Below are positions 2,300-3,997 of a DNA stretch of 11,419 bases, one piece after another. Each line of letters opens with the position of its first letter. Position 1 is the stretch's first letter. The translations under genes and the position numbers were made by a program. The notes below the pieces were generated by a model. It saw only the letters and a list, made by a program, of their open reading frames with translations. It ran no database searches and was not told the origin of the DNA. The DNA is from a virus, in the IMG/VR virus record IMGVR_UViG_3300037340_000065. One strand, written 5' to 3'.

Positions 2300-2625
2300 G
2301 GTTTTTTCTCGAAGTAATTCTTAGGATTGTGCGTGTAGCAGCGTCCAGCCACCGACCTCATGCAGCAGAGGTCGCCGGGAACAGCGCCTTCCTTGTCTGG
2401 CTGGAGCCACGGCGCTTTCTCTCCCGCCTTGGCGACGAACTCCTGGAAGGCTTCCTCGTCCAGCTCGTCCATCAGCTTGCGGATCACGTCGAAATTCTTG
2501 CGCTCGATCCAGATCGCCACGTCCTGGTCGCGCCTGCCCCTGTCGCGGATGGCGTTGAGAATGAGGCAGCCCTCGCGGGCCAAGGCTTCGGTGTTCTTGT
2601 TGATGATTACTTCTTTGTCTATCAT
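2296..2625 (-). CDS. hypothetical protein, 109 aa
   Basis: ATG at 2625 with a GGGGA SD-like motif upstream. The ATGA overlap with the HNH stop (2622-2625) favours this start over the GTG at 2655. Its own stop overlaps the next ATG as ATGA (2296-2299). Confidence 0.7.
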   Translation of the reverse strand: MIDKEVIINKNTEALAREGCLILNAIRDRGRRDQDVAIWIERKNFDVIRKLMDELDEEAFQEFVAKAGEKAPWLQPDKEGAVPGDLCCMRSVAGRCYTHNPKNYFEKKP

Positions 2626-2900
2626 AGTCCCCACGTGGGACGTTTCCCGACCCACTCTATCCAGACTACCACGTTTTCGTTTTTCTTCAAGAGGTCTATG
2701 GTGTAATACTTGCGCTCAAGCTCTTTTTCCGTGAACAGGTCGTGTATTTGGTTGTGGCACGGACGGCAGAGCATGGCGGTCTTCTTCCTGTCCTCGCCGA
2801 GGTCGCGTTTCACCCTTTTGTTGTGGCGGGCGCGAGGGATGAGATGGTGCTCTGTGAGCGGGACTGTCGTCCGCCCGCAAAGCTCACATGGTTGGCCCAT
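2622..2900 (-). CDS. HNH endonuclease (small, phage-type)
   Basis: MGQPCELCGRTTVPLTEHHLIPRARHNKRVKRDL...AMLCRPCHNQIHDLF carries C-x2-C ... HH ... N ... C-x2-C-H-x3-H, the canonical HNH zinc-finger nuclease motif. ATG at 2900. Confidence 0.85.
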   Translation of the reverse strand: MGQPCELCGRTTVPLTEHHLIPRARHNKRVKRDLGEDRKKTAMLCRPCHNQIHDLFTEKELERKYYTIDLLKKNENVVVWIEWVGKRPTWGL

Positions 2901-3726
2901 AGCCTAGTTCCCAGAACTCAAGCTGCGCGTCGGTGATGATCCTGCTGACCTTGGCGCGGTCAAGCTCGTCAGGCAGGAATGACTTCTCGCGGGTCTCGTC
3001 AAGGATGCTGAACTTCACATCAGCAATCATCTCAACTTCATCCCACGTGTGCTTACCATTGCGCACGTCCTTGAGGAAATCCACGTCGGGGCGCGGCAAG
3101 GTGATCATGCCCGTCTCCATAAGCTCGATGCCCTCGCCGAGGACGCGCAGCATGTGCATGGCTCCCTTGACGTCGTAACCGAACTCGGCTTCGAGTTCCG
3201 GCCTCTGCCCGTGCTTTCCCGTGTTCCCGCCGCTCAGCCGCAACTTCATGGCTTCCGCGAAAGCCTTGAAATGGAAGCCCGCACGCTTGGAGACGAAGTG
3301 CATCGTGTTCGGCACGATGTGCCTCTCCCAGATAGTCGGGAACGCCTCATGGTCATGGATCATGTTGTTCACGAACAGGAACTCCAAGGCGGTCGTGTTC
3401 CCGGTCGCCGCCATGCCAGCCCACTTGCGGAGCGAGTACAGGTTCAGGTCGATGTCGTCGGCGCTGTTCCTGTTGTGGTCGCCAGCACTGCACCACACCT
3501 GGGTGTCAGGGTCAAACCACTTGTTGTCAGTCTCGCGCTTCTGCGCGATGCCTAGCACCATCTCCACGGGCTGGATGTACACCCCAGAGATGTCAGTGTC
3601 AGTTGGCTTGTTCCCAGTCGCACCGTGCATAGCGGAACCAGACATAAACATATGGATGATTGCGTCAGGCCACAGGAACGGCGTGCGGCGGATCAGTTCG
3701 AGGATGTCTTCTTTAGTTCTCGCCAT
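2884..3726 (-). CDS. Pol-beta-superfamily nucleotidyltransferase (GS-x11-DTD plus a downstream DDIDL). The N-terminal layout resembles ANT(6)/AadK-type adenylyltransferases.
   Basis: MARTKEDILELIRRTPFLWPDAIIHMFMSGSAMHGATGNKPTDTDISGVYI matches the helix, strand-GS, D-x-D NTase core. A third acidic strand, NSADDIDLNLY, follows. The C-terminal half is helical. The ATG at 3726 is preferred over the GTG at 3735. Confidence 0.7.
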   Translation of the reverse strand: MARTKEDILELIRRTPFLWPDAIIHMFMSGSAMHGATGNKPTDTDISGVYIQPVEMVLGIAQKRETDNKWFDPDTQVWCSAGDHNRNSADDIDLNLYSLRKWAGMAATGNTTALEFLFVNNMIHDHEAFPTIWERHIVPNTMHFVSKRAGFHFKAFAEAMKLRLSGGNTGKHGQRPELEAEFGYDVKGAMHMLRVLGEGIELMETGMITLPRPDVDFLKDVRNGKHTWDEVEMIADVKFSILDETREKSFLPDELDRAKVSRIITDAQLEFWELGYGPTM

Positions 3727-3917
3727 AGGTTCCACGCTGACAGCGCCCCAAAGGTGACGGGCGCTAAAAGCAACTCTATCTTACCATAAGGCAGGAACGC
3801 AATGATATAGAGCAAGTTTCCTAGTACTCCGTATGCCCACCCTGCGCGGGGACTCTTGGGAATCCTCATGATGGACAGGAAGACGAAGAAGAAAGCGATG
3901 TAAACTAGCCAGTTCAC
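3693..3917 (-). CDS. small membrane protein, about 74 aa, with 2-3 TM helices. The start is uncertain: GTG at 3917, or a longer form from the GTG at 3965.
   Basis: Hydrophobic segments NWLVYIAFFFVFLSIM, WAYGVLGNLLYIIAFL and LLLAPVTFGALSAW. The GTG at 3915-3917 overlaps the TGA of the 27-aa peptide ORF as GTGA. The 3' end overlaps the NTase start by 34 nt. Confidence 0.5.
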   Translation of the reverse strand: MNWLVYIAFFFVFLSIMRIPKSPRAGWAYGVLGNLLYIIAFLPYGKIELLLAPVTFGALSAWNLWRELKKTSSN

Positions 3918-3997
3918 GTCCGGTACGATAAGCGAAACAGCACCAGCATGAGAGCTATGCCGCACAACATACCAAGTCCAAACCCATCCATAAACAT
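3914..3997 (-). CDS. 27-aa hydrophobic peptide (MFMDGFGLGMLCGIALMLVLFRLSYRT). It is not in the ORF track.
   Basis: ATG at 3997 is preceded by an excellent SD (ttAGGAGAcggtATG) and sits immediately downstream of the terminator. The peptide is one TM-like hydrophobic helix. It is stop/start-coupled (GTGA) to the membrane protein gene. Confidence 0.4.
   Translation of the reverse strand: MFMDGFGLGMLCGIALMLVLFRLSYRT

Follow-up and report, generated by a model that had tools for sequence, protein, structure and literature searches.

A putative PnuC-like three-helix membrane protein recurrently coupled to an RlaP-family nucleotidyltransferase in huge environmental phages

The DNA analysed here, an 11,419-bp stretch from the IMG/VR virus record IMGVR_UViG_3300037340_000065, is hereafter called the "window". 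On its minus strand, which carries all the genes of the cluster under study, a gene for a 74-amino-acid (aa) membrane protein—hereafter "tm74"—overlaps the gene of a nucleotidyltransferase (NTase) of the RlaP family. We found that tm74 and RlaP constitute a recurrent, phage-specific two-gene unit. A 27-aa open reading frame (ORF) and an HNH nuclease gene adjoin the pair in the window and, judging from the related loci, lie outside this unit. A first-pass annotation, made from the sequence alone, had instead joined all four into a single coupled cluster and compared it with toxin/abortive-infection or nucleotide-signalling modules. The features of the locus are as follows, in the direction of transcription.

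4066..6519, minus strand: major-vault-protein-like gene, 817 aa (MVP_shoulder, 6.7e-25; Vault_3, 4.2e-11; weak Vault and Vault_2).
4011..4044, minus strand: intrinsic terminator after the vault-like gene (9-bp GC stem 4044-4036/4026-4018, then U7 at 4017-4011).
4002..4007, minus strand: Shine-Dalgarno (SD) sequence AGGAGA, within a TTAGGA(G/T) motif common to the relatives.
3914..3997, minus strand: 27-aa hydrophobic ORF (MFMDGFGLGMLCGIALMLVLFRLSYRT), ATG at 3997, GTGA overlap with the tm74 GTG at 3917.
3693..3917, minus strand: tm74, three-helix membrane protein of 74 aa with a GTG start (evidence: homologues, dN/dS, AlphaFold2 model).
2884..3726, minus strand: RlaP-family (PF10127) Pol-beta NTase, 280 aa, ATG at 3726, TGA at 2886-2884 (evidence: Pfam, PHROGs).
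2622..2900, minus strand: stand-alone, HlpB-like HNH nuclease (PF01844), 92 aa, ATG at 2900, overlapping the NTase stop by 17 nt.
2296..2625, minus strand: next ORF, 109 aa, ATG at 2625, ATGA overlap with the HNH stop (2624-2622).

The four overlapping minus-strand ORFs named by the first-pass annotation exist, and the 74-aa ORF, the NTase and the HNH gene are clearly under selection. Its description of the upstream end also stands: the terminator (4044-4011) is followed by AGGAGA (4007-4002) and the hydrophobic 27-aa ORF, which is coupled to the 74-aa gene through GTGA. At the downstream end, the layout differs from what had been described. The NTase and HNH genes, which were thought to share an ATGA, overlap by 17 nt, and the ATGA sits one gene further on, between the HNH gene and the 109-aa ORF. 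The coupled array, supposed to end at 2622, therefore runs on past that position.

The tm74 gene is a real gene under purifying selection. Its dN/dS, computed outside the overlap with the NTase gene, is 0.09-0.24, and all four differences between the window and the related locus L002 are synonymous (handles beginning with L denote loci, and those with P proteins). The GTG start is backed by L010, L011, and L085, whose homologues begin at this very codon with ATG (MNWLVY...). A profile search collected 44 protein clusters, mostly of 72-74 aa, including a subgroup of about 97 aa with an extra N-terminal helix. Residues G26, W27, G33, N34, P53, and F56 are invariant among them, and W62 and N63 are kept in at least 90%. 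The AlphaFold2 model consists of three helices with a mean predicted local distance difference test (pLDDT) score of 95.3, in agreement with the small membrane protein proposed at first pass. The basic residues lie in loop 1 and in the C-terminal tail, which suggests, by the positive-inside rule, an orientation with the N-terminus outside and the C-terminus inside (N-out/C-in).

The NTase ATG at 3726 lies inside the tm74 ORF, giving the 34-nt overlap that had been described, and this start is backed by the conserved N-terminus MARTKEDIL/MARTTEDIL of the relatives. RlaP (PF10127) is the sole Pfam family matched, at 62.5 bits against a gathering cutoff of 23 (E 6.2e-17); the PHROGs match is phrog_388, "nucleotidyltransferase" (1.5e-42), and the PF10127 annotation is carried by 107 of 109 NTase homologues. 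The GS...DxD...D core that had been read from the sequence is intact: in 36 aligned homologues, G30, D43, D45, and D93 are invariant, and S31 is present in at least 90%. The same alignment keeps R100, W102, G166, R175 (in a GKHGQR motif), G183, D185, and K187 (in a GYDxKxAMH motif), R194, and R222 without exception. By sequence conservation, the enzyme has the complete RlaP catalytic core. Its AlphaFold2 model (pLDDT 90.3) comprises a Pol-beta beta-sheet core, residues 23-98, and a helical domain, residues 99-271, and agrees by description with the two-domain PfRlaP (PMC12776372).

The idea that the enzyme resembles ANT(6)/AadK did not survive the profile searches. Against the families suggested for it, these matched RlaP/PF10127 and phrog_388 only, and the Pfam and PHROGs searches returned no ANT(6), KNTase, MNT or CD-NTase family at E ≤ 1. 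In Foldseek searches with the model, the best match was HalB of the Hailong system (E 3.8e-4, TM-score 0.34-0.47), and no solved structure was close; ANT(6) and cGAS were marginal, at E 0.11 and above, with cGAS and CdnD at E ≥ 0.15. An IMG/VR scan with the NTase retrieved a single relative, at 47% identity and without synteny. The closest cellular homologues, at 45% identity or less, come from metagenome-assembled genomes (MAGs) of Acidobacteriota, which hints at the host group and proves nothing.

Several observations concern the RlaP homologues themselves. The public Joint Genome Institute (JGI) call of the window NTase (P0001) is 248 aa long and starts at M33, so that it lacks the G-S motif, and the tm74 gene of L002 (7810-8034) is uncalled; automated annotation thus under-reports the tm74/RlaP pair. 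The gene at 2200-4134 of L094 encodes a 644-aa RlaP homologue whose invariant GYD|xK(A)AMH motif is split by about 350 aa of intein-like sequence (…KYGYD|CYDD…FQGN|TKFAMH…). In L126, an acidobacterial MAG, an RlaP homologue is followed by a CCA-adding enzyme with PolyA_pol, HD, and tRNA_NucTran2_2 domains (3992-6193), an adjacency consistent with a tRNA 3′-end theme. In other bacterial loci, the neighbours of the RlaP gene encode an alpha/beta hydrolase and an S1/P1 nuclease.

How constant is the association of tm74 with RlaP? Among the loci found with the NTase as the query, tm74 lies directly upstream of RlaP and overlaps it in the window, L002, L005, L007, L008, L010-L014, L018, and L019, and tm74 identity roughly tracks NTase identity across loci. 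Conversely, among look-ups seeded with tm74, an RlaP gene lies downstream in five of seven, overlapping in four and about 600 nt away in L094. In the clade that carries the vault-like gene, these look-ups gave overlaps of 34 nt (L085 and L086) and 43 nt (L087 and L088). Distant tm74 relatives lacking the vault-like gene show a 4-nt overlap in L090, a 32-nt overlap in L091-L093, and, in L094, a position 600 nt upstream of the intein-containing RlaP. The pair is thus found in at least four different genomic neighbourhoods, with divergent sequences, and forms a recurrent phage-specific two-gene unit. The 27-aa ORF and the HNH gene are not constant partners, the former being unique to the window and the latter variable in distance or absent, so that of the proposed four-gene unit, and of its expected co-occurrence in relatives, the tm74/NTase half is conserved and the remainder is not.

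Small membrane proteins do not precede RlaP genes in general, as they are lacking in the bacterial loci, in T4, and in Mycobacterium phage Rey; neither T4 nrdC.11 nor the Rey gene has a neighbour of the tm74 kind. Two further PnuC-like proteins, P0166 and P0177 (the latter encoded on a 1-kb contig), have no adjoining RlaP. In the RlaP literature that we searched, we found no mention of a coupled membrane partner, and the pair appears to be undescribed.

Of the parts of the locus, tm74 is the most informative, and its sequence shows a sub-threshold resemblance to PnuC. The NMN_transporter/PnuC family, PF04973, was the family most often matched by tm74 members: seven of nine matched it, all below threshold, with a best E of 2.3e-5. 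The window protein itself scores 15.2 bits (E 0.021), below the gathering score of 27.3 bits. When 1.8 billion representatives were searched exhaustively with the tm74 profile, 42 proteins were returned, mostly of 68-98 aa. The few longer ones, P0163, P0169, and P0177, do pass the PF04973 gathering score; the tm74 profile retrieved such PF04973-positive proteins at E 1.7e-6 to 2e-4. Aligned with hhalign, tm74 matches P0163 with 86% probability (E 5.5e-6), and E. coli PnuC alone gives a non-significant E of 0.059. Two tm74 members are named PnuC or NMN transporter by JGI. Taken together, the profile comparisons make it probable that tm74 is a single PnuC-type triple-helix repeat—a "semi-PnuC"—standing outside PF04973 itself.

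Other searches with the membrane protein were negative. PDB sequence searches with the tm74 profile, P0163, and P0177 gave nothing relevant, tm74 and its family had no MtN3/PQ-loop Pfam match at E ≤ 1, and the IMG/VR scans with tm74 relatives found none. A tblastn search of tm74 and P0158 against isolate phages also returned nothing, for which low-complexity masking is a possible cause. In P0169, P0177, and P0179, a soluble C-terminal extension of 70-140 aa follows the unit of three transmembrane (TM) helices; the single PnuC-like repeat therefore also serves as the N-terminal membrane module of larger proteins.

The 27-aa ORF has no homologue in 88 related loci and is unique to the window contig. 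An open frame of 27 codons is not improbable by chance (roughly 0.3, our estimate from (61/64)^27). In L010, L013, and L085, the SD stands directly before the tm74 ATG, and in L087, where nothing is inserted either, it is degenerate; in the window, L002, L005, and L011, the SD drives an inserted ORF. Elsewhere this slot is filled by unrelated ORFs of 56-122 aa, all of which close with an ATGA or GTGA overlap: in L002 one for a membrane protein of 120 aa, in L005 one for a Cys-rich protein of 56 aa, in L008 one of 122 aa that contains an HEMIH motif, and in L011 one for a membrane protein of 59 aa. The 27-aa peptide resembles the L002 and L011 occupants no better than shuffled controls do. Descent from the L002 gene by deletion is also rejected, as the alignment with it is confined to the flanks and the first two codons.

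By these comparisons, the 27-aa ORF is a lineage-specific occupant of a variable slot, outside the tm74/RlaP unit, and AGGAGA is the ancestral SD of the first gene after the terminator, captured by the insert. The frame is probably translated, since tm74 of the window starts with GTG and no SD precedes it, and would pass ribosomes to tm74 through the GTGA. The locus has two such insertion slots filled by lineage-specific genes, one between the terminator/SD and tm74 and the other between the NTase and a conserved 62-aa gene, with occupants that are overlap-coupled to their neighbours (window 3918-3996 and 2625-2910; L002 7451-7813; L005 3061-3231; L008 941-1309; L011 2394-2573).

The identification of the fourth gene as an HNH nuclease is upheld by PF01844, matched at 24.6 bits (cutoff 21.4), and by its CxxC...HH...CxxCH pattern; the protein starts with MGQPCELC in the window, as compared to MGDPCELC in L003. 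Against the NCBIfam profile NF058586 (HlpB), it scores 74.6 bits (E 6.7e-21) over positions 9-84 of 99 and does not reach the equivalog cutoff of 130, so it is a relative of HlpB rather than its equivalog. A search against PDB sequences gave nothing relevant. Homologues with 57-77% identity occur in 17 related loci, where 12 nt to 1.4 kb, with varying genes, separate them from the NTase upstream; L002, L085, and L086 lack the gene. A mobile homing endonuclease inserted beside the NTase is rejected, because this identity rises and falls across the clade with that of the adjacent genes and the protein contains no DNA-binding module. The HNH gene is a vertically inherited gene of the clade and not a constant companion of the tm74/RlaP pair.

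HlpB, or YisB, of B. subtilis is a stand-alone, HNH-like protein of 100 aa that is genetically linked to AddAB; it binds DNA and has no detectable cleavage activity. The window protein is similar in its size (about 90-100 aa), in consisting of the HNH motif only, and in its full-length alignment. It differs in its sub-cutoff score and in being encoded by a phage.

The window is colinear from end to end with a 121-kb ENA contig at 74-88% nucleotide identity, and the relatives of its proteins are on contigs of 436-465 kb from peat and soil; its source is a clade of huge phages. A near-identity search of the whole window against the phage collection gave no match, and exact sequences of its NTase and vault-like protein were likewise not found on record. 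The vault-like gene is the conserved upstream anchor of the locus, syntenic in L002-L006, L008, L010, L011, L013-L017, and L085-L087. Its product matches only three uncultured huge phages in the phage collection, at 42% identity, and has no relatives in an IMG/VR scan; in the literature searched, we found no report that links vault proteins with phages. The terminator behind this gene, missed by a simple pattern scan, was revealed by folding (-28.4 kcal/mol, z = -3.3), and a hairpin with a T-tract occupies the same position in L002, L005, L008, L010, L011, L013, L085, and L087. Behind the terminator of the vault-like gene, the region opens a long array of accessory genes that run in one direction and are translationally coupled.

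The 109-aa ORF has an 86% identical homologue in L002 only and matched no family in the library searches, and most other neighbour genes in the window have no family match. Neither tRNAs nor Rfam families, including the pnuC-motif (NAD+-II) riboswitch, were found in the window, and PADLOC matched none of the genes. The genes sit in the genome of a huge phage rather than in a defence island.

Some further observations were made on the surroundings. A 398-aa protein at 555-1751 on the minus strand matches phrog_10079, of unknown function, at 4.7e-109 and is kept (57-68%) at the same relative position in L002-L006, L014, and L015. Relatives carry genes for proteins of 157-193 aa with a class-II aminoacyl-tRNA-synthetase core (tRNA-synt_His/tRNA-synt_2b) 5-6 kb downstream of the NTase, at 13124-13657 in L002, 14721-15194 in L003 and L004, and 11444-12025 in L085; the equivalent region lies beyond the end of the window. 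The same locus lies at 702 kb in L003 (Ga0374055_0000025, 894,233 bp) and at 255 kb in L004 (Ga0326728_10000058, 436,173 bp). The two positions are about 447 kb apart, and a similar second site was also reported; the 894-kb contig is therefore probably not a record-size phage but two concatenated copies of a phage genome of about 447 kb.

Pseudomonas RlaPs add one or two nucleoside monophosphates to RNA 3′-OH ends, with a preference for mimics of cleaved tRNAs, and their catalytic aspartates are described as required (PMC12776372). The characterised enzymes do not modify DNA or protein, and small molecules are not reported among their substrates (PMC12776372). T4 NrdC.11 is a member of the family (PMC12776372). 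RlaP is described as the most prevalent such NTase in jumbo phages, its distribution mirrors that of RNA ligases (PMC7824862), and it is implicated in RNA repair (PMC12776372, PMC7824862).

We favour, at a probability of roughly 0.55, a reading of the locus as an accessory-gene array behind the vault-like gene, in which a semi-PnuC tm74 and an RlaP NTase form the conserved pair and the 27-aa ORF and the HNH gene stand outside the unit. The NTase would act like the characterised RlaPs, adding one or two untemplated nucleotides to RNA 3′-OH ends. In the phage, it would restore tRNAs trimmed by host anticodon nucleases before they are ligated, and so serve in counter-defence. With its N-out/C-in orientation, tm74 would oligomerise into a SemiSWEET-like carrier of a nucleoside-like solute; alternatively, it would hold the NTase at the membrane.

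Some results weigh against this reading. The vault-like gene and the NTase occur without tm74 in L003, L004, and L006 (which represent one phage), in L015, and in L016 and L017; L009, with 230 nt of upstream sequence, probably lacks tm74 as well. In bacteria, 80 RlaP loci were compared, and a tm74 homologue is absent from every one of them. Since the NTase thus does without tm74 both in these bacterial loci and in three or four lineages of its own phage clade, any cooperation between the two must be dispensable for the enzyme. Moreover, no RNA ligase, polynucleotide kinase or RtcB gene was found in the window or within 6-8 kb of the NTase in L002-L004 and L085-L087, where these flanks rather than the whole genomes of about 450 kb were examined. 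The association that gave RlaP its name is thus not observed here.

The absences of tm74 also speak for an alternative in which tm74 and the NTase are mere neighbours, inherited or transferred together, and tm74 acts independently; it might, for example, serve in superinfection exclusion, modulate lysis or act in a holin-like way, or inhibit a host transporter. Beyond the loci just listed, L001 has the NTase without tm74, and T4 nrdC.11 stands without such a neighbour. The locus is a mosaic of insertion slots, and overlapping frames would by themselves make both genes move together. What argues otherwise is the recurrence of the pair with divergent sequences and with overlaps of 4, 32, 34, and 43 nt in at least four neighbourhoods, together with the high share of tm74-seeded look-ups that have RlaP downstream; tm74 relatives of the small subfamily were never seen without RlaP. 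We regard the lack of a functional link as unlikely.

A bolder form of the semi-PnuC/RlaP pairing goes further than the reading that we favour, in that tm74 would be a so far unrecognised, half-size PnuC-type carrier working together with the RlaP NTase as a two-gene phage module. Two versions can be envisaged. In one, an imported nucleoside or pyridine riboside would be captured by nucleotidylation, amounting to a NARP3-like cofactor salvage built from non-homologous parts. In the other, tm74 and RlaP would form a membrane-anchored station for the repair of RNA ends. We consider such a working module, in either version, unlikely.

Salvage in the strict sense, in which the semi-PnuC imports nicotinamide riboside or another nucleoside and the NTase traps it by nucleotidylation and rebuilds NAD+ or another nucleotide cofactor, has several points of contact with the data. 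The similarity of tm74 to the PnuC repeat and its translational coupling to the NTase in several phage lineages speak for it, and the small-molecule adenylyltransferases of the Pol-beta fold are among the fold matches (LinB, ANT). Phage PnuC-like transporters act as two-gene units with an adenylyltransferase, as in the PnuC-NadR pair NARP3 (PMC13464706). Set against this, the NTase is an RlaP by sequence, and the characterised RlaPs act on RNA. The NMN adenylyltransferases have a fold other than that of the Pol-beta RlaPs, and the fold of the window NTase thus differs from theirs. In addition, the PnuC link is sub-threshold and the NTase often occurs without tm74. Nicotinamide or nucleoside salvage of this kind seems distinctly unlikely.

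The proposal that the membrane peptide or peptides, the NTase, and the nuclease make up one toxin, abortive-infection or signalling module fares worse, and we consider it very improbable. The closest model is Hailong, in which an oligonucleotide made by the NTase gates a membrane effector: a small membrane-protein gene followed by an overlapping NTase gene has the order of halA-halB, the pair is conserved, and HalB is the top structural neighbour of the window NTase. That match is nonetheless weak, being comparable with those of LinB, ANT(3'')(9), ANT(4'), and 3c18, and a search of PDB sequences with the NTase profile retrieved nothing at E ≤ 1, not even HalB. The HalA channel has a cytoplasmic crown that binds the oligonucleotide (PMC13434031), whereas tm74 is 74 aa of membrane helices without any such cytoplasmic domain, and unlike Hailong the pair is encoded by a phage. 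A module like that of the cyclic-oligonucleotide-based anti-phage signalling system (CBASS), with an NTase and a TM effector, finds no support either, as the CD-NTase/cGAS identity has no Pfam or PADLOC match and the Foldseek values stay at E ≥ 0.15. For any such module, Pfam places the enzyme in RlaP only, PADLOC is silent, the NTase occurs without the TM protein, and there is no fixed four-gene set. Lastly, an aminoglycoside or other small-molecule adenylyltransferase of the ANT(6)/AadK type can practically be set aside, given the strong RlaP match and the lack of any Pfam match to PF04439 or another ANT family at E ≤ 1.

What survives is narrower than the original claim: a mini PnuC-like membrane protein paired with an RlaP in huge environmental phages, with a putative functional link. 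The defence module of peptide, TM protein, NTase, and nuclease is struck from the candidates, the tiny peptide being lineage-specific filler. Jumbo phages have few RNA-repair-type genes that are as common as those of the RlaPs, whose biochemistry was described only recently; a recurrent coupled membrane partner would point to a localisation requirement or to a second class of RlaP substrates. If the two proteins do work as a module, in either version, the function of RlaP would extend beyond ligase-associated RNA repair. A stand-alone PnuC-like repeat of three TM helices would then be the PnuC counterpart of SemiSWEET and bear on the evolution of the fold by duplication. It would also bear on phage salvage of NAD+ and nucleosides (NARP1-3), which is a live topic.

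The comparison with known systems sets out what is shared and what is new. Like PfRlaP, PaRlaP, and T4 NrdC.11, the window NTase has an above-gathering hidden Markov model match, the three catalytic aspartates, an NTase domain joined to a helical domain, and an occurrence in jumbo phages. It differs from them in that the 6-8 kb sampled around it contain no gene for a ligase or for end healing, and, as compared to T4 nrdC.11 and the bacterial homologues, only the window-type NTase is coupled to a membrane protein of three TM helices. Like NARP3, the pair joins a transporter-like gene of a phage directly to the gene of a nucleotidyltransferase; the partner of tm74 is a Pol-beta RlaP, with a fold other than that of the NadR-type NMN adenylyltransferase/kinase.

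As compared to PnuC (PF04973; PDB 4QTN), which has seven or eight helices in two triple-helix bundles, tm74 is one repeat of three TM helices with a sub-threshold Pfam score, and its 97-aa variants have four helices, one of them the extra N-terminal helix. The likeness to PnuC lies in the profile similarity to the triple-helix repeat, in the GW...GN and WN motifs, and in the N-out/C-in orientation suggested by the positive-inside rule. SemiSWEETs are bacterial half-transporters of about 80-100 aa and three TM helices, which dimerise. tm74 differs from them in having no MtN3/PQ-loop match, and a tm74 dimer and transport by it are putative. It resembles them in its size, in its three-helix membrane bundle, and in the conserved Trp and Asn residues of helices 2 and 3. 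Finally, tm74 relates to PnuC, with its seven or eight TM helices, as a single repeat, in the same way as SemiSWEET relates to SWEET.

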